From: an uncultured Planctomycetales bacterium
GTDB lineage: Bacteria > Omnitrophota > Gorgyraeia > Zapsychrales > Fredricksoniimonadaceae
DNA length: 35,304 bases
NCBI GenBank assembly: GCA_964480185.1
Contig: CAYZPQ010000001.1
Span: 8,240-43,543 of the forward strand
Direction: 5' to 3'
This document shows, one piece after another, positions 6,001 to 27,330 of the stretch. Each line of letters opens with the position of its first letter. Positions within the stretch are counted from its first letter, which is position 1. The notes beneath the pieces are model-generated. The model was given only the letters and a program-made list of their open reading frames with translations, was not told the DNA's origin and did not search any database. Position numbers and translations under genes: made by a program.

Positions 6001-9000
6001 TCCCTTTAAGTGAAATAATTTCCAATAATTTAAGACGATAAAGTTCGACATCGCCTCGTTCACGGTAAATTCCAGCTAATGTCAACCACTCATTGAGTGG
6101 TAAAACCCCACCCTTCATTCCAGCATGGGGCATACCTGCTAAAGCCTTGTCAAAATATTCACCGGCGCGTGCAAAATATTGTTCACTCTCAAAAAGTTGA
6201 CCTGCAAATTGATGTTCTTGTCCTTTGAGCTGACACACAGACCCTAACACAAATGCGGTGCGCACATAATCAGTCCATTGATCTTGTATCCTATTTTCAA
6301 TAGATTCGCCTTTCACTTGAATAGGATTGTCGATGCCTAATTTAATGTTTTCTAATTCTGTTGCTAACTCATCCTGCAATCTTCCCCACTGTACTGTAAA
6401 ACGCCCATGCCTTAATGCCCACAGCAATACATCTCGTACACGAGGATCATCTTCAATTTTAAGTCGATCAATAATCGTTCTGATGGCATCTTGATGCCCA
6501 TGTAATGCCAAGGCCATGGCGGCCTGAATACGGCCTTGATAATATTGATCACCACTGTTCCTTGTACTTCCTAACAATGTGGCCAAAATATCATTGGCTT
6601 TCTTTTTCTGTTCTGCCGTCGGATGTTGAGCTTCACCTAATAATTGCGCTGCTGCTAAGCGTGACGTACGTTGTTGATCGCTTAAATCAGTAATAATTTC
6701 TTCAAAATAGGCAACTTCCTCATCCGTAATCCATTTTCCCGATGCTTCTAAAAGCGCTGCTTTACTTAACGCTAAATCGTACTCATATCCTTTATTAATG
6801 AGTTCGATAAAGAAATTATACGTCCTGAGTTCTTCGTCGGTGAATTGAGCTAAATATTTGGGTGTCGATAATCGAACAATCTCGCTCTGTCTAAATTGAG
6901 GGTCGCAACAGGCAATGGCATTAAACATATTTGTTTTCTGGTACATGCGCTGATGAAGATCGGTGAGCTTAAGTGCAAAATTAATATTCGCTTCATCGAC
7001 TTCGCTAAGCCAAACAATAGGATCGATACGGCCTGTTGTTGGATCGGTAGAACGTCTTAAATGCAAATAAATATTCTTCGCAACAAATCCTTTAATGCGA
7101 CCAATCAATGCTTGAATCGAATAACGGTCCATCGGATGACCACCGGGACTTTGTGATTCATACAATACGGCTGTCGCATCACTTTCACCGGGATTTGCTG
7201 TTGAATAACGCGTATATAATCGTCCCTGCTGGGCCAGGAACATTTTTGTCGATTCACGGGCAACTAAAGGACGTTTTTCAATAATAATCCCAGCCTGGGT
7301 CAAATTACCCTGTGCATCTCTGGAAGCATTCACTAAAACCTCTGCCATGCGTTGATTGAAAAAGTTCACAGGGCCGGTTAAATACAACACATCGCATTGG
7401 GCGATTTTAGGACTTGGGTTTTGAGGATCAAAGTCTTCATACTCTATTTCTGGATGACGATCTTTAATATCTTCTAAAACTTCTAAAGCAAATGATGAAT
7501 CACGACGACGAATATTGTCATTAATACGCTGGATAAAAATAGGGGCAATTCCTTTAGGATCTTTCGATGTGACAATAACCCATTTTTGGTCTAAATGTCC
7601 CCATTTTCTTAAGACTAACATGCTAACGACTGAGCTTGCGTTTTCATCATTGTTCATGGCATTGATTAAATGCAAGAAATTATCATCATATCCACCGTGA
7701 ATACCGATACGTAAACCTATCGGTTCATTATTTTTTGGATTAGATCTCACAGCAGATAAGAATTGTTCTTTAGTATCAGGAGTGCGCGAATAAACCCGTG
7801 CTGCTGTCCAGGCACTTAAACCATTAAATTCAGAACCTACAGCAATTGCGGTTACAGGAGTAAACGGTTTTCCTCTTGCCGTTTGTTGACGCGCAACCTT
7901 CTGTGCTTTTGCCTGCATGCGGTCAATGTGCTTTTTCTTCACGCGTGACCCGTTGGTGATAACAATATTGGCCTTAATACCAGACAACATCAAACCTTCA
8001 ATAAAGTCTGCTAAAACCAAGCGTTTAATCGCCCCACGCCCGACAATAAGGCGTGCATAACCACGGTTAAATTCAACCGTATCATTACCCGCATCAGCCA
8101 CTTGGCGTGATGCAGGGATCGTCGGTGGTAAATATTCTTTTGATCGATCGGCATATTTCTTATCTTGAGTTTTATTGAAAACAAATAATCCAGCGCCAGC
8201 GATAATCATCGCTAATCCCGTAAAAAATATCCATTCTGGCCAATGCGTACTAATTGCTGTTTGTAAATCAAGCGCTGTTCCCGTAAAAAGTAACATCAGT
8301 GCAGAGCGATATAACCAATTCGCCGTCTTATCGCCTAATACATCGAGGGTAATATCAACCAAATTAGCTTGTGCTGTGCCATTACCATAGTAACTAAATA
8401 CCCCATAACATTCTTTGATGGGGAAGGTGCTTTGACGTGGCAAGACAAACACAATTTCCTCGGGGGCATACCCTTTATCATAGCCGGCAGGACGATGTTC
8501 TTCATGTAAGAGTGGGATAAGAGATGACTTGAAACGGATAAATAAAGGTAAAGCTCCAGTTAGGCGCGTAAATGATGTTGTTTGAGGATCAGCAATATAA
8601 TCAGCAGTGCCTGGAACTAAATGCTTCTTTAATTCATTCTCAAACCCGCGAATATTATCTTTATTAAGAATTTGGGCAATGCCAGTTAAGGCATCATTTA
8701 ATGACTTGATGTGGGTCTTCGGTGAATTACTGTTGTTGCGTATTAAGTTAAATAGATAAATAATAAATGGGATCATCAAGAGCCCAATTAAACTCATGAT
8801 AAATATGTCTTTAGGCACAATATCCATCGTCGATGAATCATTTCCGTTTGCGGCTGTTTGGGCCATGGCTATGGATGGGAAGATGGCGATTAATCCAATA
8901 ATCCAAGGCATAACATAACGTGCCACTATTCTTTTGAGTTTTTGAGCTATCCCTTGTGTCATAGGAATAAAGGGAATCATCGCTGGTGCAAGATGTGTCG

Positions 9001-12000
9001 CGCGAAGAATTTTCTCTGCAAATCTCTTAAAAGCGTCAGGAAACTGAACTAAAATATCAGCGAAAGAATCACGCCAAATAAATGCGAATCCAAACAACAG
9101 TGACGATACTGCAACATAGATCCAAGGCATGTCAAATTCATTTTTAATTCCTGTCACATTCTTTGGGATAAATAACGTTAAGAACATTCCCACTAAATAG
9201 GCCGCGCTCAGGGACATAAACGCAATAACAATCTTTTCTACTGTCGCCATTGTAATGTGTGGGAAGGTAATCATGGCAAAGGAAGACAATTGAGTCATGG
9301 TGTTAGGGTGTAGTGCGACGAATGAATTGTCTGCCATCGCTGGGGCAATAGCAATTATTAATAAAGATGTGACTATCAACGCGGATTTTAAAGAATTTCT
9401 TTTGGTAGCTTTAACTGGTTGTTGTTCTATCGTGATAGGCATTTGTGGAGAATATGCAGCACGATTGTTTCTATCTAAACCACGTTCTTTCAACTCCTGT
9501 TCCCAATTCGTCCAAGAGAATTCTTTCGCCAATGAGTCTCTGATCGTAGGATATTTTCTAAATTTTCTTTGAATGAATTGTCCCAGCCATTCCTGCCAGT
9601 CATCTGCATAGCCACCATCTTCGAAAATATTAGCCTCCGATATATCTCTTAAATGGCTAATATCAAATCCTTTTAATTCATTGCCTTCAAATCTCAAGTT
9701 GCAGAGATTATTATCTGAAACATCTATATCAAAGACTCCTCTTTCTAAAACACGGGCCTTGAAATTAATCATCGTTCTAATTATCTCTGCAATAACAGAA
9801 TATCTTGGTCTTTCACGTTGGAGTTCTTTATTTAATTTGTCCTCTAGAGACTCTCCTTTAACCATATGTTGAATAAAATATTGAGGGCTTTCATCTGTCG
9901 CGTTCACGAATTCTGCTTGATCATTAATTTCTAAAGCCTGAATATCTGCGTACACTACCCCTAAACGTGATTGAGCTAATCTATACCCTTGGGTTGAATA
10001 TTGCGTAATCCAATTTCTTTTTGAGGCATCTGAACTATTATTTACATACTTTATAACTATTTTTAAGAGGGGTATCCGAAAAGCAATAAATACCGACCCT
10101 GTCACATCGATTTCATACCCTACCCCTTTAGAGCGTGTGTAGCGTCCAACAGCAACATGAGCTCTATAGGCATGTTGAAGATTATCGAATTCTTCATTAT
10201 CAATAGTGATTTCTTGATAGGCATTAACAACTGCGTCTTTAAGATCTCGTCTGTCAAAATCTCTTTGATCTTCTAATAATATTGTTCCTGATGCTTCTAA
10301 CACACCAAAATATTTGTTTGGAAATGTGCTGGGGTGATCTGATCCTCTTTTTCTTAGAATGAAATAGACGCTGATTAACCCATTCGCTGTATTTGTCATT
10401 AAAATATTAAAAGGCACTCGTTCAAGCTCAAGCAATGTTTCTAGTCGGTATATTTCATCAATTAGACCTTCAAAATATCTGCTTTGAATGACAAATGCTT
10501 TTGTGGGGAAATCTTCAATCAGACTGACACGCACATTATCATATTCTAAAAATTTTTGGTGAGTTGCTGTCTCAATAGGGAGTTCTTGTTTGAATAATTT
10601 ATAAGCTTGATGTTGAACCTTTCCACCTGAGTCTTTGTGATTGTATCCGATACGGTAACCAAATGGTCCAAGCTCATGCAGCATTTGAACCATCGAGGAG
10701 ATCAAATCATAGTCGAGTTGAAGTTGTTGATGTGATTTCCTAGCTATCGTTGCTGTTTCATGAAAATAAGGATAGTCTTCTCGTATGGCAACAAAATCAT
10801 TACCTACATCTAATTTATCTTTATGCTGTAATGATGAACAAAGTGGACAACGTCTCGGGGCCTCTAATAATCGTAAACCACTTTGACGTTTTGCTCGATG
10901 TGTATTGAGAACCACGGAAACGGGATATCCTTCAATGCTTTTCTGCTGAAGCTGTCTTTCATCCATTGAGCCAATTAATTTACTAAATGCCGGATTAATG
11001 GACACAACCCCATCCGTCACTGTTGTAACAAATCGATGTGTTAAAATTCCTTTATTTCGTCTTTGACCTTCACGAATCTTACGACTTCCTCTTACTGCGC
11101 CTAATGCAGCAACTGGTGTTACTGCTAACCATAACATGGGCTTAGGAAGAACTTGCGTAATGAGGCGTTGTGTCTTGGTGTTTCCAATCGCTTCTGCGTC
11201 AGCCTCACGCTGAGAGAAAATATTTGGTTGGATAAATTCAATTGGGTCTGTGCTAGATTGACTGTCGACGTACACATCATCTTCTTCACCGTTGATAATA
11301 GTCATGAGAGCGCCTGATATATCTAGTACTGGCTCTTGGGGCATAGGCATCACATCGCTAGACTCATTGACTACGTATTGCCGCGACAAATTAACGAGAT
11401 GATCGAAACGTTCTAAATGGGCATCGATTTGAGGAGCGAGCGTTTGAGCCATGCGCAGGAAGAAATCGTTCTTAGCTTGATTATCTTGCCTATCCTGTTG
11501 ATCAAATGATACGCGCATCTTTTCAGCTAACAGCAATCGCTGCTGTAATCTAGGTTCAATACCTTCCGCTCTTTCTGATTTTAAATAAAGATCTTGTTGG
11601 TATTCCATAAAGGCTAGGACGACTTCTGTCGTATCATTTCCTTGCCCCTTACGGACAAAATCATAGATCTCCTCGACGCTATAACCTATCGCTAAAGCCA
11701 AGCGCTTGGTAGGATCATTCTTTAATCGGGTGTACCACTCATAGATTGTGCTAGATAAATACCCTCTCTCTTCATGGGCTTGTTTAGCGCGTGTGATGTT
11801 GTAAATACCTTGAGCATCAGCCCACGCAATAAACTCCATTTGTTTTAAGAATTCATAGCTATTCATCGCTATGTCATAGGCAAATAATTCTGTGATCGTT
11901 GCGGCATGGTTTGCCCAGAACTCCTGACGAGCGGGAGATCCTCTAGGGAGATATTGCACTTTGCTGTACGCTGTTAAGAAAATTCTTTTTTGTTCTAAGT

Positions 12001-15000
12001 TGGTTTTTAAGACGGGATCTTGATGCTCTCCAAGGCTTAAGCTCCACGCGCTTGATACCAGCAATGAATCTAAATATTCAACAATAAGGTCATGGTCTCT
12101 TAATCCATTGAATTTAAGATGCAATCTCAATGGATCGACTAAAATAGTAACTTTATTAATGCCTCCTACGGGTTGGACCATCGTGGCCAAACCAGCATCT
12201 AACGTCGCTTCTTGAGTCCCACCATCACTATTAAGACGTTCTTTGTACTTGCCTATGATGTGTTGATGAGGATATTGATAGTTCGTTATTACATTTAACC
12301 GTTGTGTCAACGCGGCTTTTGCCCCCGTCGATGTTGGTTTAATAATCAGAGGATCGGTATTGCGAGGTTGAACGTGTTGCACAATGGGCGTAACGGATAT
12401 TTCTTCACGTTGATGAGCCGGACGAGGCCTGTTTAAAACTATAGTTACCATCAGGATGAGACCCGCTATGATCAACCCGCTTAAAGTGTTTATATAGCGA
12501 CGATATTTAAATTCTGGGGCCGTTAGTCTAATCCACGACAACACGATTAAAACAATAACCGGCAATAAGACGCCCGCCGCACCTAATAAACTTAATGAGA
12601 GCGCGGGAATCACGGCTAACAATAGACCGCGGGTATTAAAGTTAAATGCCTGCGCAGTGGGCTTTGATTTAAGATGATTTACAGAATTAATTGTTGGAGC
12701 TATACTATTTCTTAACGAGCTTTCCCCAGGCTTATTTTCTGTAGTCGCAATTCCCCCTGCAGGTTGTCCTGATAAATTTCTTGGGAGGGAGTTTGTGTTA
12801 ACCAAATTTCGATTGGATTCGTACAAATTAGATGTGTTAGGTAAATTCGGGCTCGACTGTGCTAAAGTAATATTTGTAACATTGGTTATTGGACCATTGG
12901 CTGGATCTGTTCTTAACTGGCCGTTATTTGTTTTTGGATCATTTTTATTTTCATTGATCTTATTTCTTGGGCTATCAATTGTTAACTCATCAGCAGGGAG
13001 AAAATAATTATGGACGATATTACTTTGTACTATGCTGTTCTTACTCTTTTTATAACCGCTCTTTGTGGTGTCTTGACCTGGATTGTTCACAACAGCCGTA
13101 AACACCCCGACGCCTGAAGTGTTTTGTTTGCTTATGCCTATCCTCTGCGCTATAGACGGACGCCCCCCATTATTGCGGCTTTGAGTCATGCAGCCTGTCA
13201 ATGCAGATACGGCGATAAGAAGTGGTAATAGCCATGAGGCAATAAATAACTTTATTTCTTTAAATCGTGAAGAAACTGTAGCTTTTCTTTGATCTTGGAA
13301 ATACGCATCAATAAGCCCATCCTGATCCTCAGCCGCTGTTAAACGATCTAATAAATCAATATAGGCTTCGAGCTTACCATCAAGGGGTTTGCTTAATCTT
13401 GGTCGATTTATTTTAGCAGTTTTTACTTCTGCCCCTGTTCTTGACCACTCAAACATGGCTTTAAACTCTTGGGTTAAAAACATTCCTCGGCGAGATAGAA
13501 CGGGCTTATGAGCTGTATAGAATTTAGCATTCTCTTTAATAAGCTTTCGTTCTTCATCAAGACGTTGTTGAGCGCTAAGTTTACCTTGATCTGTATGATG
13601 AAGTTCATGTAATAAAATAATCATCATAAGCACGTTTCTTACTAAGCCCCAATCTGAGCCATGACAATTGATATCTAGTAAGGTATTAGCGATATTTTCT
13701 TGAATTAAAATATCAACTCTGAACCCATCAAAATGATCATAACGAGCAGCAGGCACAGGCAGAGCTTCATCGGCAATGACATGAATGCTAATCTTCTTTG
13801 AGAGCAGATTGTGTCGATTAATGCTTACAACAGCTCCTAAGTCCGAATCTAGTCCAATTAATGCCCCAACCAATTGACCAGCTAAATTTATTGCATGCTC
13901 ATTGTTTCTATATGCAGGAGTAGGCATTACACGATTGTAGATATCAAGAAAATTCTTTGGCGTTGTAAAATCCAAATCTAATGAATAACGAATATGATCT
14001 TTGATATATTCATAGTCTGTATCTTCAACATTCCAACCACCAAGTGATGCTAAGCGCACTAATGACTTTCTTTGTTCTTTACGATTTCTTCTAAAACCTA
14101 AAAAGACAAATGGCAGTAAGGCAACTGCAGGCGTCGATGTTGAAACGGGTTCGGTGACTTTACTAAAACGAGGATTAAGATCCCTTGCCCCCCCTTTGCC
14201 AATATTTTTCATGCGTTTAATCGAAGGCTTAAGTTTAGTCGGCTGATTATCTTGTACTGGTGTAATCGGTTGAACTTCCGTCGGTATATCCATGCCCTGC
14301 ACGTGCACCATATCTAATTCTGGATGGGCAATGCCTGATGGAATAGTAGAAACTGCAGCTGGTGCATTCATTTCTGTCGTTACAGGTGGCATGACAACTT
14401 CTGGCGTAATGACCGGCATTGCTGGCGGGGTTGTCTCAATGATAGATGCTGGAAGAACGACTGGCTCAATTGCCTTCGCTTCTGCTGCTACTGGTGTAGA
14501 TGGAACTACGACTTCTTCGCGCACCGGCATATTAACAGGCGAAGGCTCAGTAATATATACAACGGGTTTTGCATCTTCGGGCAATACGCTCGACGTAGCA
14601 ATAGAAACTGGTGTCTGTACCTGGTTTGTATCAGCAACATTTTCCGTTTCCCAAGGTGTTAAGACAATATCCCATACAGGATCTTGCGCAGTTGCTGCTT
14701 GAGGTTCAACGGGTGGAGCGCTAACTTGCACTGTTTGTGCTTCAACGGGTTTGCTTACCTTCGATGCAATAGAATCATGTCCCCTATTTTCCGCTTCTGG
14801 AAGTGCGCTGGTATAAACGCTATAAGAAGAATATTGATCTTGCCCAATAAGCGCATCTAACACTGTCCTTAACCCTACATTAAATGTATTTGTGTCATAC
14901 ACATCACGGTTTTTAATCAACTCTCTTAACTGACGGTGAAGACTTCCTGTTATCGTTGGTATTTTTGATAATGACACAATGCTATTAATATAGTGCTGGG

Positions 15001-18000
15001 TGTAATCCGTCACAGGATGGGAAACTATCTGGTACAACAAGGGATCAATTGCTTCCTTGATATTAAAATTCGTCGCCACATGCGCAGCCGCGACTTGAAC
15101 ATGCGGATTTTCATCCCCACGCTTTAACGTGGTTGTAACAGCTTTGATAATTTGTAATGTATCATTGTATCTTGTCTCAAAACGTTCCATTAAGCGCCAG
15201 GCCACATAACGCACAAATTCATCCTGGTCTTGGCTCGCACTACGGATAATCTGTGCGCGGGCAGCATAGACGTGGTCAATCGACGCATCCCGTCGGATAA
15301 AGACATCAGAGAGGCTAATCAACCCAAAGGCACGCACGGGTGAGCTTGGATGATTATTGATTAGCTTGAGCATGTCTTTAGTTCCTCGACTATTGGGGAC
15401 CTTGTTTAAGGCCGCATTATCAAGAACTTGCCATGCTTTATCTATATCATCAATACCTGCCGCAGCATACTGGGCACGCACTTCTTGAAGTAAATTACCA
15501 TCAATCCCATAAGCATCATTGATGCGTACATTGAATGGTGCTGTATTTGTAAACGGTGGTCGCTGTTGAAGGAATGTTAATTCACGCTTAAATTCTGGTA
15601 GATTTCCACTTTGAAATATGGCAGGAACATTAACTGCTGGTCTCTTGAGTAATTTTGGTGCCACACCAATAACACTCACCATGAGTACTACAGCAAGTGG
15701 CCATGCTTGACGATTTTTATATAATACACGTCTTCCCACCCATAACAGCACAAGCGCAACGAGAGCTAATCCAACCATCACGGATGACATCGCTGACATA
15801 GCTAATATTGCTAAAGGATTGATCATGGCGAATGGGGTTGTTACGTGAGCTGCATCGACGATATCTGTTACACTTTGGGCATTTGCTAAAGAATATTGTA
15901 AAGCAATTAAGCCCGCTATAAAGACTGTAGCGGCGCCGGAAGCTGCTGAAACAATTTTGCCTTGCAGATTACGTCTAGTAATTGGAACAGTTAAACGTTT
16001 GTTCTTCCTTGCGCGTTCATCTGCAGCTTTACGATCAGCTTCGTCTTTCATGTAAGATGCGCTTAGATTCTTTTCCACACGCTCAGCGACAAAAAGATCT
16101 CGTTGCATCAAATCATCTAATGTTAATTTTTTAATTTCTGGTAATGGTGGATAACCAGCTCTGATTAACATGTAATCTAAGAGAATACGGGCCTGTTGTC
16201 CTCGCGCAAATTCAAATGGTTGTATGCGTAAATAGCGTAAATATAATGAAACGATGGTTAATAAATTCGCTCCCGGAAGAACACGTTGATTAATATCTTC
16301 GATGAGAATTGTCATCAATTCTGGAATTCTACTCGCCTCGGGAGCGCCCGGCATAGGGTAGGTGCTATGCCCCACACGCCATTTCCCTGCAAAAGCATGT
16401 TGCTCTTCATCAGAATATCGTTTGGAAAGAATGCGATTAATTTCAAAGAAATCTTCTTCAACCAATGCTTCGCCTTCACGAATTAAATTCAACACATAAA
16501 TCATGGCATCATAATTACGTTCATAAACTGATCTTCTTGTGTCTGCATTTCTAACCAATGATGCGGCTAATGACGCTAATTGATTCTCCGATATTGCTTT
16601 TGCTAAACTAATCACGTTAACAGCACTGAAATCCCAAGAGCCATCTGCTTTCTTCGTCATCCCTTCCCATGTCAATTTTCTTGCTAAATCAAAATCAAGA
16701 TTATGCGTTTCTGAAGATTCATTCATTTCACAGAGGTAACACTGTTGATTAGCTTCGACGCCATCCTCTTTAACCCATGTATGGACAAGCCCATCAAAAG
16801 TCGATGTTTGTGCCTTATTAGAACGTACGCGATGCACTTGTTCTTCACCATCGAGGTTAAACGTAATAATAGCGCCGGTTGTCCAGAATGGTGGAACATA
16901 GCGCCCTGTTTCCGGATTCCACTTGGCTTCAATGCTCACTTCTTTTAAACAGTCATATGGTTTATCACTGATTGCATTTAACAGAGCTGCACCTGTTTTC
17001 TTTCGGGCTATCTCATAATCCACACCATTAATCTGAATATAATCTTCCCCATGGGATACCCAGACAGGACCTTCGATATTACTCTTAATAACTTTCCCAT
17101 TTCTCACCGCTTGCGTAACTTGATCATCAATAATGGCTGCTAATTTATTAATAATGAATGTGCGATAAATTTGGAATTTCTCGCGATCTTGGAATTGTGG
17201 GTATTGCTTATTGAAAGCAACAACTAAACGGCTCGTATTTTTAGGTAACCCTGGCTTACGCAATGAATCGGAAATATTCACGATAGTAAATGCAAGATTG
17301 TGTTCCCTATAATATTGCTTCGCTAATGCCATAAGATCCATGACATACTCTTGCTTATCTGGTCTAATAACTCCCTTTTCATCAAAAACCCCACTCAATG
17401 GAGAATTGAAATAAAAGAAGATCTCTTTTCCCTCTTTACCAAATCTTTTTTCATCGTAGAGGGCATCAATGGGATTCCGTGCATTATTCTCTAACTGAAT
17501 AATTCTCACGGCGTCATATGCTTCTCGATCTGAACTATGAGAAATATTAAATTGCTGAATTAAACGCACAATAAAGTTCATGTACAGTTCTGTTTTAGGC
17601 GTCATCTTCGATGGATCGCGATTATCTGTATCCATTAAGGCGGTGGCCTGAGCTAGTCGGACAATATCTTGAGGTGGCATAATCCCTAAGCCCATGATAT
17701 ATCCCCAGGCTAATAAAACACTGGCCCCAATGCTTTCATTATCAACTGGCCAGTCATTCTTTGGTTTATTGTCCAACATATAGGCATGGTGATCATGAAG
17801 GGCAATGGCATTATTAATAATGTGAGGATCAAGCTCTCCTGGATTGGACGTATCCATAATGAAAAATTTGAAATGACTCGTCCCATTTAAATTAGCTTTC
17901 GATTGAAGATTTGTGAAATCAAAGACGGGTATATCTATTTTCTCTGACCCCTCAACTTTGTTATAAATTCTGCCATTGGTATAACGAAGCACGCTTTGAT

Positions 18001-21000
18001 CAATATGCAACACACCAATTTGGGTTAACATGTGTTTAACTTCTTCGGGTAAATCTTGATCATCATCTAATTGTACTAAAGGCAATACTTTGACTTTATC
18101 GCCATACACCGTGTGATACCACCAGGCTGTTAACATGGCTGATATGACAGCATCCATGTCAGGCTTCTTATGGCCAATAACACCGATAACACGATCACCA
18201 GGTTTAACATTTTTTAACACATTTGCGCGCGAAGAAATAAATTCTTGGGCTGTCAACAGAGGCTTATCTACGGTAACACCAAAAAGGCGTTGGCCAACCT
18301 GATGCCATTCTTCTGCTTGTTCATTTTGATTATAGGCTTGTGCATTTTGATAGAAATGGCCAATCATCTGTAAAATACGTATGCTTAAAATATGCGCTGG
18401 CATTGCTTTATATGGATCTTTGTCGTCGCGATCATAGACAGCTAAAGGCATTGCATCCCGTAATTGTTGAATCACCGGACGATTCACACGGTTTAAAATG
18501 CTTAATAATTTTTCGCCATGCACTTGATAAAAAGCTGCTTCATCTGCCTTTATAGCCTCTTGATTAACATCAAAACCATATACCTCGGCATATTTCGTGA
18601 TGATAGGATTTAATTCTTTCTCTAAATGAGATATCGAAGCTATGCGTGTTCTTAATATCATCCAGGCCTTGTGCGCTAAGAATCCTACTATCAGTGAGAA
18701 TATACCAACAGCGATGTTAAAACCCATGGTTGCTAAGAGCGTCTCATGATGTTCAATGGGTTGAATGACTTGTGCTGCTTGGCCCCTCACAAAATATGCA
18801 TCCAAGCCCCATAAGCCAAATACAATATAGAACGCTTTTACTGCTATATTTTCTATGCCAAAGAATCGAATCAATTCTCCTAACTCATTCATCAATATTG
18901 ACCTGCAAGAAGGCTCAACAAACAAATCAGCAGTTGTACCAGAACCATCTCGACCTATGACGATATGAGACGTCGTTGCTGAGTTAAACTTCAATTGAAT
19001 TAATAATTGCTTGGCTTGCTCTATAGTCCTGATGCCATATCCATTTTGAAATGGGATTCTATTCTCTGTTAAGACATCAATGCTAAATAAACCTTTGGCG
19101 TCTTCTAACACATATACTCTTGGCTCACGGTAGCCCCAGAAATTTCTAAGTACATATTCTTTCAAAGGATCTAATATTCTCTCTTGTAAAACACGATAGT
19201 CGCTTGTTTTAAATAAGATGGCCCCGTGTCCATTGATAGCACGAGTAAGCTCAGCAATACTCATGACCACGGCGCTTTCCGAGATACTATCAATTTCTTC
19301 TAATATTTGATCGACATCGATTGAAACTATCTTATTCTTAGACTTATTATCGAGACTACACTTTATTTCAGGAGAAACACCAAATTCTTTATCTAATTCA
19401 CCACTGATAAAAGCAATTAATTTCTCACGTGGATGAGACGCTATTGTGTGGGCTTGCTCGGCTATATCCAAAAGTCTATGCGCTTGGGCTAAAACCAATA
19501 AGGGTTGAAAGACTTCTTCAGTAGATCTTAAATTGAATTTGATTGTCGATACTAAAGTAACGCTTGTTAACACTAACCAACGTATTGGATCAATGGTTGA
19601 ATCATAGGCAAATAACCATTTTAAATAGTCTTGAGCTGTTTGATGATACTTCATGGTCAGAGGGGTCGTTCTAACAAAGGTATTTAAGAAACCATTCTTA
19701 TCTACTTCGGCAATAATATCTTTTCGCCCTTGCTCCTTTAACGCAAATGCATATAAACCAAATAAACTGATCCCAATCTTCGCATGCTCATACGCGCGGT
19801 CATAGCCAATATCTCCGCCTCGTGGATCAATAAGCCTAAAATCAATAACAGGATCATGCATTGTCTCCGTATTGATCATGACATTTTCCAACATAAAATC
19901 CCCGTGAATATGCTCGAGTGTGTTCGGAGCGAGTCTATCACCATAATGAGCTACTACTTGTTTTAATCTACGCTCAAAACCCTGTGTTCTTCTAGCATTG
20001 ATCACGACGGTGTCTTCAAACATCCCTGCCATCACCTGTGATTCATCTTGTGCTTCATGCAATCGCTGAATTGTCTTTCCAAGAATAAATTTATCAACGT
20101 AAGCTGATCTATGGCAAGGCTCACATATTTGATAAAACCCTGCCTGATTTAGGCTATCAAATATGGACTGAAGAATGCGCACGATGTCTTGAGGACTAAT
20201 ACGCTCATCGGAAATAAGACTTTCTAATGTTTGCCATTGGGGACTTGGATAATAAGGCATGTCATACCAAATCGTATCTCCTTGATCTCCTGTATAGCTT
20301 TCTAATACAGGAGGAAAGAATTTGGCTGATGATGGGCGATTAGCTTCTTTTTGAAGCGCTTCAATTTCCATCCTCAATTTTACAGGTTGCCCTGGCTTAA
20401 AACGTTCTTCCTTACGAACAACTAAACCATGTGTTGGGCTCTTCACTAACATGACCCGCGCATTGGACGCCGACCAGAATATCTTGACAACAGTACCTAC
20501 TCCTTCTCTTCTCAGAGGTCCTTGTTGTCCTTCTGCAGATTCCCACAAAATCTTTTCAATATCTCTATCGCTATCAATCAATGCCTTTGCAGCTTCTTCT
20601 AATGGCTCTTCGGATAGTTCTTTAAAATCATGAATCCTTTCATCTGGCAGCATCATGCCCATGACCTTAACGCCAGATGTTTCTGTTCTATCACCAAAAT
20701 TTGTTTCTAAATAAAAATTGCCATTTCTAAAGCGCACATCCCATGGGACTGGTGCCTTTAACATATCGGCGAATGCATCGATGGTCATATATAATCTAAA
20801 TGCACTATAACAAGCCTCTCCACTTGCTAATGATGCTGCTATTTTTTCTCTGAGTACAGGATTGCCGCGATGACGACGGTCTTCAACTAAAAACCGTCTT
20901 GACCCATCAGAAAATAAATAGGCTCCTGATTGAGGTTTATCATAATTACGCACCATTTCGCTCACAACACCCGCATTGTATTCATCCATGATACTCAATG

Positions 21001-24000
21001 CAGCGACCCATTTATCAATAGGAGAAACGTGCTTCATGACAAGCCCTGTTAAATCATTAACCCGATGAGTTCTCAAGTAGTCCACTTGTCTTGCTTTCAA
21101 CATCGCTATTAAATTTTCTGGAGAATATTCAATGCGACCATCTTGTTTACCTTGAACTCTAAATATATTGTATGGTTTCAATGCACCACTAATATCTCCA
21201 TTACCAAATGGCAATTCCTGACTATTGTCATCGACAAATGCACTGCTTGGACCAATGTAATAGCCTTTGTAAACGCCCTGTGAAATAAACAAAATGTTGT
21301 CAGGATTAAATCCATAAAATGCGTTACTGATAAAATTATCCACAACCTTTGTAACAGTTTCATCGTTAACAATAATAATGATTGTCTTAGAGGCAATAAC
21401 TATTTTAGGGTCACGGTTATGCTGTTTAGCTAAACGTTGCAAATAGCCTCGATAAATGACGAGCTGACGAGGACCTAAAGGAAGAATGAATCGATGCGCA
21501 AATTCTCTTAAATAAGTGTGTACTGTTGAATTGGGATTGGCTGCTGTGAAACAATCCAGCGCTTCTCCTAATTCTAATGAGAATAAATTATAGGCTGTAC
21601 TCAAAAAGACAGACCCAAAGGTCTTGCGCATGCGGGTCATAGCCCCGCCAAAAAAGAATATTGGGGCAAACTTGCCATCAATTTCTTGCTGTTCTGCGTT
21701 TGATCGTCCAGCCGCACTTATAGGTATATTGCGCATATTAACTGGTGCATCAACGACTACGTTTGATGCGGGGATCAATTGATTAACCTCATCTACTTCT
21801 TGGTCAATACATTTACCTAAAGCGTTGGTATCTTCTAGTCTTAATGCAGCGGCTTGATATTTTAATGATAATTCTTTGATGGATCTGTCACGTGGCTCTA
21901 TTTTAGTAAGCAATGTTCTTAAAATATCAAGTGGTGGCGGTTGACGGAAAATAAGGCGCCCACGCTGAAAAAGTAAATACTCGGGGTTAACCCTAATCCC
22001 ATATATTTCGGGGAAAGATAACACATGATGTACCGCATCGTTCATTGAACTATTAGTAACAATGTATTTCTTTGTTACTTGAATAGCTTCCCACTCATTA
22101 TGAATGCCCTTTAAATGTATTCTTTCATGCCCTTCAATAAGCCCTCTTAAAAATATTTTTAATTGTCTTAGATTATGTTCCTGAACATCTCCTTCGGTTA
22201 ATAATCTTTCAATGACATTAATAATAGACAAATGAACGAAGAATATTGTTCCCCTTGAACTGACTGCCATCAGCGACTTTTTAAGTAGTTTCTCATTAGA
22301 CGTAACCACCAGTGTATCAATATTATGGATGCCCAAATTATTATGTGCTAATTTAGCTACTAAACTAATCGCACGTCTGGCTTTATCACTCAATTTGACC
22401 ATCTGAGAAACATCAAATCGGTCATCTCGAACTGCGTTAAATGTATAGTGCTGGGTTACTTGTATGCTGGAATCAAAATAATAATCATCTGCGACTAAGA
22501 AAGGGGCTTTAAGAATATGAGCGACGCGCTGTTGGTGTAATGCTTGTGCAATAATCTCAAAATATCGTCCTACACGTGAAGGCCCTTTGATAAATGAATT
22601 TACGATATATGACTTATCCCTGCGCGACTTGCCTACATTGACAGCTAAATCTACAAAAGGTAAAACAGGTTCATCATTTCCATAAAATTCATCACCAAAA
22701 TAAACAATGCGCGGAGAAATACTGCCCACATCACGTAATAATTGAGTGATGGCGCTGCCTTTATTCACATCTGGTACAAATATATCTATGGTTGATGTCC
22801 CAGAAATTCTAACGCCTACTGAAAGGCCCTGTTCTCTAACCTTGTCTTTGATATATCCTTCCCACACGCGTCTCTTGTTATAATTGGGATCGAAATTTTT
22901 CCGTAATTGATCATCGTGGATTCGACCAAGCACGCTAAGACTAATTTGCGCGCCTTCTTTATAAATCTGTTGCTGAGGCTTACCTTGCCAAAAGGAATAC
23001 TGGCTAATTTCGCTAAATGCAGCAATGGTTTGTTGCAAAATTAGTTCTGCACGATGCTGAATATCAGGATCCATGGTGCGGTTATAAAGTAAGATAGGAT
23101 CGGAGTCGTATAAGTTAATCTTATACATTGTCGATCCATTATTAATAATGATGTAAAAATATCCCCTATAACCTCTACGTTTCGCTTCTGCTCTCAATGG
23201 TTGAATAACATGTTGATCAACACGCTTGTATTCAACCCCTGTGGCAATAGCAAAAACCGCCCCTTCTGCAATCAAATCAATAATCTTAACGGCCATTGAT
23301 GCTGGAAGTGGATGGTGTGTCTCTGCCAATGTATTATCTTTGTCGGCAATGACAATCAATCGACGGTTTTGGGCAACAATTTGTTTTAAACGATATGTTG
23401 GTGATTGTGTATATGCGTGTCGTCCTGCCACGATAAAAGTCAATACCAAGGCGATGAGACTCATATAATTCATTGCGCTCAGTGTTTGAGGAGGCAAGCT
23501 AAACTGATCTTGAGCATAAGTATTCGCTGCTAGCTTAAATAAACCAACCGCTAATAACATGCCAATAATATTTCTTTGCTTAAACCAGCGGCTGATGAAT
23601 CCTTTCTTAAACAATAAACTCAAACCAAAAACAAGGGCGCCTATTCCCGCGAATGTTGCGGTTATTGCCAACATCGTCCCTAACTTGATAAATGGACGTG
23701 AGGGGTCCACATTCACCACAGAAGCCAACCCTAAAGGCAATACCGATGCCGCATGGACAATTGGCCAGTAAAAGAATGCGTCTGTCCAGCCCACTTTTAA
23801 ATCCAACACAGTATTGGTAAAATTATCATTAACGGTGGCTCTTAGTTCTTCGGTAATCGCTTTTGCCCGTCGTGATTCACGTAGAGATCTGGCAAGTGTG
23901 GCAACCGTCTTGGTGTAATATTTAAATCCTTCAAATATCATTAACCCCACAAAACCTTGTAAGGCAAATACCCAGGCAAATTTTAATGACGCTTCAGTTT

Positions 24001-26164
24001 TAAGGATTAAATGCATGCCCGTAAACAATGTCACAATCGCTGCTTGAGCAAAAATAATAACTGTCATCATCAAATACTTCTGGGCACGCTGATGAAGCCA
24101 TTCTAATGTTAAAAGACCTTTGATCTTCTTATTGGCCATATACCCATCAATGATCCACGCAAAACCCTTGGCACGCAGAAGACTTAAAACTAAAATCCCG
24201 CCCGTCGTTAACCAGAAATGTGTTTTACCTAGTACGGCAATCAGCATAATCTCAGTAGCAATAGCAATGGCCATAACGCTAATGCCTTGAAGCAAAAGAC
24301 GGTCGATATGACGTTGGCTCATAAATGTATTATCATAGGCCTTCACACCACTGCGTATGATGCGATGGAATCCATAGTACCCTGCATAGGTTGTAAAGCC
24401 TAATAGAGACGAGGCGACAAGATGAATGCTATCAACACTAATTGGAATATAGGCGAGAATATGCTGTGTTGTATCTTTAAAATATACAGAAGCAATGGTG
24501 ATCATTAAGAATGGCACCAGCGATAAGGGCCCAACAATATTTGGAAATCCTTTCATCCCTTTGTCATACATACTCTCTTCCCAACGACGGACATCTTCTT
24601 CGGTCCCTGCCGGTGGTTTATGTTTCATCCATAAATAAATGATCACAGCCGCTGTGATCAAAGCAACAACACTGCTTCCCGTTAACGTACTTAAGCTCGC
24701 GATGAGTGGAACGATCGACGATAAAACCATTGTTGGTTCTTGAATAATGCCTGCATTGACGGGTATTGCTGTGGCTGATGCGGCACCGACGAGTAATAGG
24801 GGCCATAAAATGCTTCTTAGGGTACCATTGCGATGTTTACTTTGTGTATGTTGTTTACGTTGTTGTATATACGTATTAAGTCTATCAATAGCCTCTAACA
24901 CACCCCATGTTAGAGCAGTTATCAGTCCAAACAATACCACAGCCGTCATTGTTTTTTGCCACCATGTTGTCGTGAGCATAAATTCATCGAAATAATCAAT
25001 AGGCATCACCATACGACCCGCATCTTCAGTCAGAATAAATTGTTGAGCCAATGCAGGTGTGCCAAATGCGATGAACGATAAAACGATAATATGCATGGGA
25101 TTCTTTAAATTCCATCTCGCAATCGCTGCAATAAAGATAATCGCTATAAGGATACTAATTGTTTCTGGTGCAATTGTGATCTGTGCATTAAGGCCAATAG
25201 CAGCAAAGAGTGGGCCTGAGGTATTTTGAATCATACTCACAGGCTTATGCTGATAGGGATCATGGCTATTGGTATTGCGTTTGAAAATATCGAATCTGCC
25301 CTTAAACGTATTGGTTGGATACGTGATATTCGTCGGGGCATTCATCTTCATCAAATATGTCGCACCACCTTTAGATTCTAAACGTGGCGTTGATGGCGTA
25401 TCATTCGTCGTAGTCTCTCTTGTCACTGGCTGACGACGCCCAAGGATTTCTGCGCCTTTGCCAGTAGAGTGTTGCACAGGATTGACCGTAACCGTCGGTG
25501 AAGGATCGCGTTGGAATACTTTCCATTTCCAGAATTTAAGCCATGAGAGATCAATTTTCTTAACGACTTCGACAACCTTGGTAAATGGCTTGCCGATACT
25601 AAAACTATTCGTACGTTTACTTAATTCATTACTCCACTGAGCACCTTTAGTATTAAATGGTGTTGGAGTCACAACGTTACCAGTTGTTATACTATTCGTC
25701 GCTGCAGGTGTTTCTCCACGGAATGCATCAACACCCTTTCCACCTTTGTAAGCAAGTCCCTTGAATGTTGGTGTGGGCAATGCGCTGTTAGTCAATTCAC
25801 GTGCTCTGTCACTTAATGCTTTGAAATCAATGACTCCCTTGGATTGTTCCATCACACGAGGACGCTGTGGCAAGGCAAGACCATTGGTCATGACAGCCAA
25901 GTTTTGTTCAAGGGCTTCAAGATTGATCGGTTGTGCTGGTATAGTCGCTGGTGTATTGGTGACCTGTGTGCGTCGAGGTGCATCAATGGTAAAGCTAAAT
26001 GGATCTTGGGCGTGCGTATTAGGTGCGAGTGTAAATAAACCAAATGCTAAAAATATGGCGAAGAGCCCTCGCTTCTTAAACCAACGATTTAAGTAGCCTT
26101 TCTTGTATAAATAACGAATGCCCCATACGGTGGCACCCATACCAGCGAAAGAGACTGTAATAGC
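1..26164 (-). CDS. Giant multidomain membrane protein, downstream segment. It has 8,721 sense codons in the same frame as the upstream ORF and is 3'-partial, running off the window.
   Basis: Hand translation of the minus strand immediately after the TGA, in the same phase, gives uninterrupted protein-like sequence to position 2. The track lists no complete minus ORF in this phase below 26165; the four small minus ORFs there are in other phases. That is expected if no stop is reached. The first in-frame ATG after the TGA is at 26138-26140, inside a predicted TM helix, with no spacer and no SD-like sequence. Many enzyme motifs are listed as separate features below. Confidence 0.85.
2..2900 (-). 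other. Long Gln/Glu/Leu/Lys-rich, probably all-helical or coiled-coil region with no recognised domain
   Basis: The translation is rich in heptad-like helical sequence, for example ...LVELRKDSVQMFTNFDPINHRFIELKKVFTSLKNQHQRMYKA.... It has no hydrophobic TM stretches or catalytic motifs that I can recognise. Confidence 0.35.
2920..4100 (-). other. Superfamily-1 helicase/ATPase core, Upf1/DNA2-like (AAA_11/AAA_12 type)
   Basis: Walker A is VVEGPAASGKTEM, with GPAASGKT at 4004-4027. Motif II is VIIMDEASRE at about 3651-3680. Motif III is LILIGDLEQMGPF at about 3555-3595. Further motifs are LTKNYRAVPLLADLVSELSYAGQV, VVTFYTGQIELL, TTPQSFQGGERKAIIVD and LTVALSRARDHMAVI at about 2930-2975. Confidence 0.7.
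4890..5290 (-). other. Cluster of predicted transmembrane helices
   Basis: Hydrophobic stretches include SLPVVAAFVALLSSVYFL, FLLIFSSVITPFVITT and WISLILLLTSIVFVGIAIVMTYW. Confidence 0.5.
6390..6680 (-). other. HEAT/PBS-lyase-type repeats
   Basis: The translation reads RLAAAQLLGEAQHP...GRIQAAMALALHGHQDAIRTIIDRLKIEDDPRVRDVLLWALRHG. Confidence 0.45.
8861..8941 (-). other. Internal Sec-type signal-peptide-like segment (AMA|Q)
   Basis: The segment reads KLKRIVARYVMPWIIGLIAIFPSIAMA|QTAANGNDSS. It lies within a TM-helix cluster spanning about 8150-9420. Confidence 0.45.
9332..9412 (-). other. Internal Sec-type signal-peptide-like segment (AMA|D)
   Basis: The segment reads KATKRNSLKSALIVTSLLIIAIAPAMA|DNSFVALHPN. 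It shows a classical n/h/c-region layout with an AxA site. Confidence 0.45.
10230..10870 (-). other. HIT/GalT-superfamily-like domain (GDPGP1 / Ap4A-phosphorylase-like nucleotidyl transferase or phosphorylase)
   Basis: RRCPLCSS has its CxxC at 10838-10849. It is followed by GNDFVAIREDYPYF...ATIARKSH and GYNHKDSGGKVQHQAYKLF, with QHQAY at 10601-10615; compare HLHFQAY in GDP-hexose phosphorylases. The histidine pattern is not canonical. Confidence 0.4.
13190..13267 (-). other. Internal lipoprotein-signal-like segment with a lipobox (LTGC)
   Basis: RFKEIKLFIASWLLPLLIAVSALTGC|MTQSRNNGG has L-T-G-C at 13190-13201. This fits the [LVI][ASTVI][GAS]C consensus after a positively charged n-region and a hydrophobic h-region. 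Confidence 0.45.
13595..13609 (-). other. Second HExxH motif (HELHH), a possible metallopeptidase-like site
   Basis: The motif sits in MMIILLHELHHTDQGK, within a soluble block at about 13300-14060. Only the short motif supports this call. Confidence 0.3.
14240..14765 (-). other. Pro/Val/Glu/Ala/Thr-rich low-complexity linker
   Basis: The translation reads KPVEAQTVQVSAPPVEPQAATAQDP...TEPSPVNMPVREEVVVPSTPVAAEAKAIEPVVLPASIIETTPPAMPVITPEVVMPPVTTEMNAPAAV. The 136-aa plus-strand ORF at 14292-14702 is its antisense shadow. Confidence 0.6.
14900..15400 (-). other. HEAT/PBS-lyase-type helical repeats
   Basis: Repeats are recognisable in SSPVRAFGLISLSDV, DEFVRYVAWRLMERF and ENPHVQVAAAHVATNF, at a spacing of about 30-40 residues. 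Confidence 0.45.
15878..15976 (-). other. Internal signal-peptide-like segment (n-region, h-region, ANA|Q)
   Basis: The segment reads RRNLQGKIVSAASGAATVFIAGLIALQYSLANA|QSV. Two or three further TM helices follow downstream to about 15650. Confidence 0.45.
16100..16570 (-). other. Fic/Fido-like domain with a degenerate active-site motif
   Basis: YLRIQPFEFARGQQARILLDYMLIRAGYPPL has its motif at 16187-16222. QPFEFARGQQAR replaces the canonical HPFx(D/E)GNGRxxR. Helical Fic-core-like sequence lies upstream (EEDFFEINRIL...GKWRVGH). Confidence 0.5.
17190..18210 (-). other. DHH/DHHA2 phosphoesterase domain (family-II inorganic pyrophosphatase-like)
   Basis: Motif I is RVIGVIGHKKPDMDAVISAMLTAW at 18121-18200, matching GHxxPDxDxxxS. 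The DHH motif LHDHHAYM has DHH at 17786-17794. A C-terminal DHHA2-like part follows, around FYFNSPLSGVFDEKG...FTIVNISD. Confidence 0.6.
19740..20530 (-). other. APH/choline-kinase-fold small-molecule kinase domain
   Basis: The catalytic loop LEHIHGDFMLENVMIN has the HxDxxxxN motif at 19883-19906. It is followed by FRLIDPRGGDIGYDRAYEHAK at about 19801-19833, matching the IDxxxxxxGDxxYD pattern. An N-lobe-like segment VGTVVKIFWSAS...VVRKEE lies upstream. Confidence 0.6.
20680..21690 (-). other. UDPGP-family (UGP/UAP-like) sugar-1-phosphate nucleotidyltransferase domain
   Basis: APIFFFGGAMTRMRK at about 21625-21675 resembles the L(A/N)GGxGTR(L/M)G loop, with Gly replaced by Met. LPFGNGDISGAL at about 21181-21216 resembles PxG(H/N)G(D/G). 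Further on is GAYLFSDGSRRFLVEDRR. Confidence 0.5.
22630..23365 (-). other. HAD-superfamily subfamily IIB domain (phosphatase or PMM-type phosphomutase)
   Basis: Motif I is RRLIVIADKDNTLAE, with DxDxT at 23330-23344. It is followed by FAIATG, and the C-terminal motif is VNKGSAITQLL...IVYFGDEFYGNDEPV, matching the KG...GD..ND pattern typical of HAD-IIB. Confidence 0.65.
23500..24840 (-). repeat. Polytopic membrane module, copy 2
   Basis: Copy 2 runs KHRNGTLRSILWPLLLVG...ALITAAVIIYLWMKHKPPAGTEE...KGMKGFPN...YIPISVDSIH...QKYLMMTVIIFA...WVFALQGFVGLMIFEG...NDNFTNTVLDLKVGWTDAFFYWPIVHA...KLGTMLAITATFAG...KKGFISRWFKQRN...NTYAQDQFSL. Similarity is visible at nucleotide level, for example 26401-26470 against 23921-23990. 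The offset between copies is about 2.49 kb. Confidence 0.8.
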
Positions 26165-27330
26165 TCACATCACGCCAACTTTGGCTAATGGATGCTTTAC
26201 ATCAACTAATGAGGCAATCCATGGGAATACTTTTGTTGATGCATGTAAAATTGGCCAATAGAAGAATGCATCGGTCCATGGTATTTTCAAATCTAAAATG
26301 GTGTTTGTAAATGTATCGTTAATCGTCTTACGTAAGTCGTTTGTCACATGTCTTACTTGAATGGCAGTATATAATTCTCGAACAATGTCGCGTGTTTTAT
26401 TGGTGTAATACATTAATCCTTCAAATATCATCAACCCAACAACACCCTGCAAGGCAAAAACCCATGACGATTGTAATGAATAGCCACTATCTAAAATTAA
26501 ATACATTCCTGTAATCCACGTCGCAATCGCAGCAGGAGCGAATAAAATCGCGGTCATTAATAAATATTTTTGCGCATGTGCGTAGATTAGTTCTAATGAC
26601 AACTTGCCTTTATTATTTAAGCTCGCCATCTTCGCATCCATGATCAACTTAAATCCATAAGCACGTACCATGCCTAATACCAAAATACCAAATGTCGTCG
26701 CGATGACTTGGGTTTTTCCGATCATGTAAATCAGAGCTATTTCCGCGCCAATCGCTGATACAGCTAATAATGTTCCACCAATGTAATTATTTCTGATAAT
26801 TGTTTTCGAAACACGCACACGATCAAGAGCATTCACAGCGCTGCGTATGTAACGATGGAAGATGTAAAAACCAACATAGGTTGCCAACGCTAAGATTGAC
26901 GTGGCCACATAGTGAAGACTTAAAGAGCTAATGGGGATGTAACTTAAAACTTTTGTCGTTTGTATTGGGAAAAATACTTGAGCTAATACGATACCAAGGA
27001 ATGTTGGGACAAACATCGGAGCAACTGCATTCGGGAATGTCTTCATGCCCTTTGCATGAATTGTTGCAATCCATTCAAATGCTTTCTCACCTGTGCCTGC
27101 TGGGGGTCTGTTGGCGATCCAGGTGCGGATGACGATGGCGGCGGTGATGAGTGCAACAATAAAAGCGCCGGTTGGGGTTGATAGTGTCGCGAATAAACCT
27201 AACACAGGTGTTTCGTTAACCATTGTTGTACTAGAACCAATGACATCTGCATTAAGCGTGCTGAAATTTGACGTAGCAAGAATCAATCCTGCTAAAAATA
27301 GCATCCAGCGAATGGAGCGGTGCATTTTTA
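25990..27330 (-). repeat. Polytopic membrane module, copy 1. It spans the in-frame TGA.
   Basis: Copy 1 runs MHRSIRWMLFLAGL...ALITAAIVIRTWIANRPPAGTGE...KGMKTFPN...YIPISSLSLH...QKYLLMTAILFA...WVFALQGVVGLMIFEG...NDTFTNTILDLKIPWTDAFFYWPILHA...KVGVM*AITVSFAG...KKGYLNRWFKKRG...NTHAQDPFSF. It is collinear with copy 2 at a roughly estimated 45-50% amino-acid identity. Confidence 0.8.
26165..26167 (-). other. The only in-frame stop codon (TGA) in 11,767 codons. It could be a read-through or recoding site, a nonsense mutation, or a sequence error.
   Basis: The minus-strand context is aaa gtt ggc gtg atg TGA gct att aca gtc. The flanking peptide KVGVM*AITVSFAGMGATVWG aligns with KLGTMLAITATFAGIGALVFG in the paralogous module. 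In that copy the equivalent codon is TTG (Leu) at 23669-23671. Confidence 0.6.

Follow-up and report, generated by a model that had tools for sequence, protein, structure and literature searches.

We analyzed a 35,304-nt stretch of DNA (hereafter, the window) from an uncultured bacterium that is deposited as Planctomycetales and placed by GTDB in Omnitrophota (GenBank assembly GCA_964480185.1, contig CAYZPQ010000001.1, positions 8,240 to 43,543). An earlier note on this DNA had described at least eight internal segments resembling Sec signal peptides within one open reading frame (ORF), and had proposed that they are plain transmembrane anchors, signal peptidase cleavage sites of a polyprotein or relics of exported proteins fused in frame. 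A six-frame scan revealed that one minus-strand frame extends across the whole 35.3 kb (11,767 codons) with a TGA at 26165-26167 as its sole stop, whereas the other two minus-strand frames contain 842 and 1165 stops. The assumption of one ORF does not hold, as this TGA lies between segments 1 and 2 and splits the frame into ORF A and ORF B. A listing of ORFs of at least 150 aa under the bacterial code contains ORF A alone, and ORF B was taken from the six-frame scan; its 8721 codons are a lower bound because it extends beyond the window, and A and B together count 11,766 codons. All eight quoted peptides were recovered in this frame at the positions given in the earlier note, which ruled out a plus-strand reading of their coordinates. 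The features needed for the argument are the following, with residues (frame aa) numbered along the whole frame and an arrow marking a putative cleavage site.

26165..35233, minus strand: ORF A, 3022 aa, from ATG to TGA
2..26164, minus strand: ORF B, at least 8721 codons, in the frame of ORF A and running past the left end of the window; first ATG at 26140
26165-26167, minus strand: in-frame TGA, within a helix of membrane module copy 1, opposite TTG (Leu) in copy 2
25991..27448, minus strand: membrane module copy 1, frame aa 2619-3104, about 11 helices, spanning the TGA and holding segments 1 and 2
27248-27328, minus strand: segment 1, in module copy 1 and ORF A
26009-26104, minus strand: segment 2, in module copy 1 and ORF B
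23423..24952, minus strand: membrane module copy 2, frame aa 3451-3960, holding segments 3 and 4
24752-24838, minus strand: segment 3, in module copy 2
23513-23608, minus strand: segment 4, in module copy 2, with an extra helix 10 residues beyond NTYA↓Q
15656..15955, minus strand: three-helix cluster, frame aa 6450-6549, whose first helix is segment 5 (15878-15976)
13178..13249, minus strand: single helix entering from the cytoplasm and ending outside, segment 6 (13190-13267 in the earlier note), terminating in L-T-G-C
12431..12628, minus strand: helix pair, frame aa 7559-7624, closing the 183-aa loop that follows segment 6
8741..9385, minus strand: five-helix cluster, frame aa 8640-8854, holding segments 7 (9332-9412) and 8 (8861-8941)

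The frame is rich in hydrophobic stretches: a Kyte-Doolittle scan gave 72 windows, a search for uncharged runs 52 segments and the Hessa scale 33 strong helices, and the gene pair contains roughly 35-50 membrane-spanning helices (about 40). The eight segments are real hydrophobic stretches, but they represent a hand-picked subset of these 33-52 hydrophobic segments. In each of the eight, basic residues are followed by an uncharged hydrophobic run and a small-x-small site, so that the geometry of a signal peptide is present as described; it is, however, no more common than in controls. We compared helices with the more basic flank on the N-terminal side (N-in) with those of the opposite orientation (N-out). 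Under a loose -3/-1 rule, the exit of 11/13 N-in and 19/20 N-out helices carries a small-x-small site compared with 73% of random positions, and under a strict rule the values are 9/13, 13/20 and 51%. A combined heuristic for the n-, h- and c-regions (a net basic charge of at least 2, then a core of 9-16 uncharged residues whose hydropathy averages 2.0 or more, a c-region of 3-7 residues lacking charge, and agreement with the -3/-1 rule) detected 10 sites in the protein, including seven of the eight segments, and 12 in the reversed sequence, which retains the composition and the helices but loses directionality. With about 40 membrane helices, 8-10 signal-like ones are expected. These results indicate that the resemblance to signal peptides is no more than chance, perhaps with the exception of one lipobox.

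The surroundings of the segments are those of polytopic membrane proteins. The segments lie in clusters of 2-12 helices, and the gap from the putative cleavage site to the next helix is approximately 12, 1, 10, 28, 33 and 18 residues for segments 1, 3, 4, 5, 7 and 8, respectively. With the next helix no more than 35 residues away, these six segments open hairpins and are not export signals; a sizeable loop follows only segment 2 (281 aa) and segment 6 (183 aa). The segments have the tripartite look of Sec and lipoprotein signal peptides, with a basic n-region, an h-region of 11-19 residues and a small-x-small or L-T-G-C end. Unlike them, they are internal (segment 2 possibly excepted) and mostly lie next to another helix. 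Substrates of signal peptidase I (SPase I) have the signal at the N-terminus and an exported soluble mature domain after the site, whereas seven of the eight segments are located 2,640-8,790 residues into their ORFs and six of the eight run into the next helix. Segment 2 begins 24 residues past the first ATG of ORF B (26140), so that the description of all segments as internal stands for seven of them, and the remaining one would be close to an N-terminus if ORF B were translated separately. Together with the duplicated polytopic module described below, these arrangements support the first proposal of the earlier note, plain transmembrane anchors.

We thus favor, with a probability of roughly 0.8, the interpretation that the eight segments are ordinary transmembrane helices of the signal-anchor or stop-transfer type in a giant polytopic multi-enzyme membrane protein of the kind encoded by Omnitrophota giant genes. 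The segments are predicted to run from the cytoplasm to the outside as signal anchors. The basic N-flank of N-in helices is accounted for by the positive-inside rule and small residues are common at the membrane exit, which together produce the look of a signal peptide. Insertion would be co-translational, presumably through the signal recognition particle, SecYEG and YidC: each N-in helix would start translocation and the next helix would halt it. Most of the resulting loops would be short hairpins, and two moderate loops would be exposed outside, namely the 281 aa after segment 2 and the 183 aa after the lipobox helix. The soluble blocks predicted to remain in the cytoplasm include weakly GlmS-like, DHH-like or weakly Fic-like and HEAT regions and a helicase.

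The same geometry would also fit a polyprotein, in which some N-in/C-out helices serve as internal SPase I sites and LTG↓C as an Lgt/LspA site, so that cleavage on the outer side of the membrane would divide the product into membrane-bound, lipid-anchored and cytoplasmic pieces. In all eight segments, a basic N-flank is combined with small-x-small at the predicted outer end, as this explanation demands. Yet the sites are not enriched over the reversed-sequence control or over N-out helices, cleavage at six of the eight would free no more than 35 residues ahead of the next helix, and no protease domain was found in the window. Flaviviridae-type polyproteins provide a eukaryotic, viral analogy, as host signal peptidase in the endoplasmic reticulum cuts them at internal signal sequences; they resemble the window protein in being long multi-pass chains with internal N-in/C-out helices ending in small-x-small, but share no homology with it. 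We know of no established natural bacterial example of serial internal processing by SPase I or II. On balance, the polyprotein explanation is improbable, and apart from a weak post hoc signal from the single LTGC lipobox, cutting by signal peptidase I/II finds no support above chance.

Segments 1-4 belong to a duplicated membrane module. Frame aa 2662-3104 of copy 1 align with 3496-3936 of copy 2 at an offset of 832-834 aa, with 47-55% identity, or 47-50% when taken over approximately 440 aa. Segments 1 and 3, and likewise segments 2 and 4, are equivalent helices of the two copies and are conserved to the same degree as the remaining helices; the loops RPPAGT, YIPIS, WVFALQG.VGLMIFEG and WTDAFFYWPI are also retained. 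The alanine at -1 is kept between the copies (STLNA↓D and IPVNA↓G; NTHA↓QD and NTYA↓QD), with Thr at -3 in one pair, and the detectable homology of the copies stops a few residues past AQD.FS; both observations speak for cleavage. However, two conserved alanines are not significant against a background identity of 47%. A specific scheme of processing from the outside, by Lgt/LspA at LTG↓C (13190-13201) and by SPase I at sites such as the NT(H/Y)A↓QD that ends both module copies, is rated as quite unlikely.

We searched 1.84 billion representative proteins with a profile built from the two module copies. Beyond ORF A itself, only weak relatives were retrieved: P0002 (1606 aa, E=7.8e-10), P0008 (912 aa) and a number of ~290-aa membrane proteins, among them five with Pfam DUF2269 (E 1.7e-7 to 1e-3). 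The central module helices are kept in P0002 and P0008 in a four-way alignment. A basic stretch, KKG..W..K.R, is also retained in P0002 together with its preceding helix. As this stretch is the n-region assigned to segments 2 and 4 in the earlier note, its conservation in P0002 marks it as a feature of the module. The profile aligns over the central helices of the ~290-aa DUF2269 (PF10027) proteins, but the window sequence itself reaches no Pfam threshold, and the module is about three times longer, with additional helices, among which are the signal-like ones at its two ends. No homologues of the module were found in GTDB representative genomes (two scans), JGI metagenomes, viral contigs or plasmids, and a word-indexed protein search with residues 1-1500 of ORF B gave no match.

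The finding of a related module in P0002, a separate 1606-aa protein with an N-terminal signal peptide, counts in favor of the proposal that exported or membrane proteins, once separate, were joined in frame to give the giant ORF, and that their fossil N-terminal signal peptides would now serve as helices only. A Met stands at the start of the n-region in segment 1 (MHRSIRW...) and segment 8 (MTQGIAQKLKR...), and the TGA demonstrates that ORF boundaries can change at this locus. The other six segments, however, have no nearby Met. The signal-like helices are internal to the shared module unit, copy 2 lacks the Met of copy 1, and no separate homologues of the flanking pieces were present in any collection searched. 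An origin of the segments as fusion relics is therefore hard to credit.

The single lipobox is the feature least readily attributed to chance. L-T-G-C occupies frame aa 7368-7371 (13190-13201) and is the sole match to the pattern [LVI][ASTVI][GAS]C at an h-region end among the 27 cysteines of the frame (Cys7371). It ends a 19-residue helix with a basic N-flank and is followed by a polar tether-like stretch (CMTQSRNNGGRPS) and then by the 183-aa loop, which the charge bias places outside the cytoplasm; all this fits the Lgt/LspA site of a polyprotein. The lipobox tripeptide occurs in a signal-like context at 7 positions in the protein, and the chance that one of 27 random cysteines lands there is ~0.016, a post hoc value from a test devised once the match was seen. 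The lipobox is thus mildly beyond chance and suggestive only. In lipoproteins the modified cysteine is found at about residue 15-40, whereas Cys7371 lies 4,325 residues into ORF B.

Cysteine is very scarce in the frame as a whole (27 in 11,767 residues, 0.23%), with only one in the 3022 aa of ORF A. CxxC-like pairs occur at frame aa 5060/5063, 6188/6191 and 8152/8155.

The helix broken by the in-frame TGA belongs to module copy 1, and the conservation between the two copies continues past the TGA without a gap. Throughout the frame there are 159 TGG codons compared with one TGA and neither TAA nor TAG. This indicates the standard code with the TGA as a lone event, and rules out an alternative code in which TGA is read as Trp or Gly. 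Since 8721 stop-free codons follow, inactivation must be very recent, or else the TGA is a base-call error or ORF B is reinitiated or read through. The likeliest readings are accordingly that a nonsense change occurred very recently, that a base was miscalled, or that the gene is split and its second half is reached by readthrough or by reinitiation at ATG 26140. ORFs A and B were probably once a single ORF. No Shine-Dalgarno-like sequence was found upstream of ATG 26140. A selenocysteine insertion sequence or other RNA element at the TGA was also considered and rejected, as the window contains no Rfam match, no tRNA and no meaningful tandem repeat.

A further explanation is that the TGA marks a decaying or misassembled gene, the translated features of which have no present function. 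The TGA does break a helix of a conserved module, and ORF B is in neither of the protein libraries searched, whereas the exact ORF A protein is present, as a singleton, in the NCBI-derived collection. Against this, the frame stays open for all the codons past the TGA while the other two frames are riddled with stops, and catalytic motifs are kept, including a Walker A motif and a DxD-type HAD motif. A pseudogene or assembly artifact is thus very unlikely.

The frame is also open over 35234-35302 on the minus strand, between the ATG of ORF A and the right-hand edge of the window (ADFDDLLNKRIETSLRTSKKQEA-M), so that ORF A may start further upstream or another in-frame ORF may precede it. The GC skew of the plus strand is negative throughout the window (1-35304) and the cumulative skew drops monotonically, which fits a single long coding strand (minus, with G over C) and no strand switch.

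Beyond the segments, the frame holds further helices and several soluble domains.

31895..32869, minus strand: hydrophobic clusters in ORF A that the earlier note had not listed, frame aa 812-840 and 1046-1136
28862..29026, minus strand: helix pair in ORF A, frame aa 2093-2147
25028..25162, minus strand: helix pair, frame aa 3381-3425, closing the 281-aa loop after segment 2
22625..23350, minus strand: HAD-IIB (Cof/alpha-phosphoglucomutase-like) hydrolase with a DKDNT motif (Pfam Hydrolase_3, E=1.4e-8; TIGR01484; PDB 4bnd)
8174..8233, minus strand: single helix, frame aa 9024-9043
6410..6685, minus strand: HEAT repeats (HEAT_2, E=1.7e-5, 25.5 bits, just under the cut-off of 27.7)
4925..5269, minus strand: cluster of 3-4 helices, frame aa 10012-10126, directly ahead of the helicase
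2924..4090, minus strand: SF1B (Upf1/IGHMBP2/DNA2-like) helicase with the Walker A motif GPAASGKT (AAA_11/AAA_12, E=2e-28; PDB 4b3g, E=6.5e-20)

The nearest solved structure to the HAD domain is an alpha-phosphoglucomutase (PDB 4bnd). Matches to APH kinase, DHH and GlmS-like domains all fall under the curated cut-offs and serve as hints only. A Fic domain is not claimed, as the PDB match was weak (3cuc, E ~1e-3) and the HxFx(D/E)GNGR motif is absent. Counts of lysine and arginine (K/R) on both flanks place the blocks of frame aa 1137-2092, 5545-6449 and 9044-10011 on the cytoplasmic side, and the single preceding flank of the helicase block likewise places it inside; the helicase is presumably cytoplasmic because it needs ATP. 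The loops of frame aa 3100-3380 (281 aa) and 7376-7558 (183 aa) are assigned to the outside. The flanks of the 1560-aa block with the HAD and kinase-like domains are contradictory. A full topology based on helix parity was abandoned because helix counts from hydropathy alone are ambiguous in several clusters.

The closest relatives of two separate parts of the protein appear to be of Omnitrophota type. P0002, the relative of the module, comes from a family numbering more than 4000 proteins, in which the named proteins are 'Candidatus Omnitrophica bacterium'. A GGI[DN][LFM] motif (consensus GGIDL) is located approximately 66 residues from the C-terminus in 116 of the 119 retrieved members of this family. 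P0002 itself carries GGIDL, and so does P0010, the closest relative of the helicase (37% identity over 466 aa). The motif may serve as a sorting or anchoring tag specific to the lineage, and nothing relevant to it was returned by a full-text search of the literature. Proteins of the P0002 family (P0033-P0151; L001:2104-6924) share a conserved N-terminal domain of about 360 aa and have variable middle parts, several of which match metabolic enzymes such as pyruvate phosphate dikinase, malate synthase, enolase, hexokinase and adenylate kinase, among others.

A scan of metagenomes with the helicase alignment yielded 8 loci. One of them, L007:2-21331 (Ga0209083_1000049, 186 kb), is an ORF that is open across all 21.3 kb and encodes at least 7110 aa with 22 long uncharged runs. 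Its domains comprise a GHMP kinase, HAD, two GT1, two methyltransferases, HATPase_c, PRK, HEAT and a helicase of the same SF1B subfamily, but the helicase is the sole part homologous to the window. Another locus, L004:3358-14781 on a 143-kb metagenome contig, encodes a 3808-aa ORF with a helicase of the closest type (37% identity) but contains only a single long uncharged run, which shows that this helicase subfamily also occurs outside many-helix architectures. We also considered a phage or plasmid origin of the window and rejected it, since there was no plasmid DNA match, the matches in phages and plasmids were restricted to distant helicases, and no viral contig was related.

Omnitrophota giant genes ('Archaeovorins') offer the best comparison. 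Every full-length example encodes numerous transmembrane regions, the HEAT repeat is the domain found most often, and sugar-phosphate enzymes occur (West-Roberts et al., 2023, bioRxiv 10.1101/2023.11.21.568195). They typically have SecA_DEAD, glycosyltransferase and peptidase domains, with a divergent SecA DEAD domain in most of them and GT5/GT1 glycosyltransferases; whether and where the products are cleaved is stated to be unknown (West-Roberts et al., 2023). A 39,678-aa protein is given for Vampirococcus/Velamenicoccus archaeovorus LiM (Kizina et al., 2022, as cited in West-Roberts et al., 2023). Like these genes, the ORF in the window is far above 7000 aa and has many internal transmembrane regions; it has a HEAT match just below the cut-off, a HAD phosphomutase-like domain and weak GlmS-like matches, and is mostly unannotatable. 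It differs in having an SF1B (Upf1-like) helicase in place of SecA and in the in-frame TGA that divides it. Domain searches of the 35-kb window, past which the ORF continues, turned up no SecA_DEAD, glycosyltransferase, C39 or S8 peptidase. GTDB representative genomes contain no sequence homologue of the window. Judged from these sequence features, the gene pair would be of the giant-gene kind known from Omnitrophota, which does not imply membership in the Archaeovorin family. That the cleavage points of these giant proteins are unknown, with cleavage itself an open question in the literature, leaves room for the polyprotein explanation.

Several observations weigh against reading the segments as plain helices of an Omnitrophota-type giant protein. 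The helix calls and orientations come from hydropathy and K/R counts, and the charge bias is contradictory around frame aa 2148-2618, 3961-5520 and 8855-9023. AlphaFold2 returned an all-helical model of the module from the two-sequence alignment, with a predicted local distance difference test score of 37, which was unusable. Several of the eight segments are more signal-like than a typical 20-residue helix, with an h-region of 11-16 residues, Pro at -4 to -6 and Ala at -1, and of just 27 cysteines one falls in the lipobox. Lastly, two distant relatives provide the link to Omnitrophota.

The resemblance to signal peptides is mostly ordinary, as helices that enter the membrane from the cytoplasm look like signal peptides and do so here no more frequently than chance predicts. 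The rarer object is the gene pair itself, an orphan that exceeds 11,700 codons and combines about 40 helices with a duplicated 11-helix module and a few enzyme domains; it comes closest to the giant genes of predatory Omnitrophota. Two of its features, the single internal lipobox and the TGA that splits a conserved module, are offered for testing. How the giant chains of Omnitrophota are inserted into the membrane and whether they are cut are open questions on which this window bears. If processing from the outside were true, it would release a lipid-anchored piece of 183 aa and separate membrane modules, and would supply the missing cleavage points for giant proteins of the Omnitrophota type.

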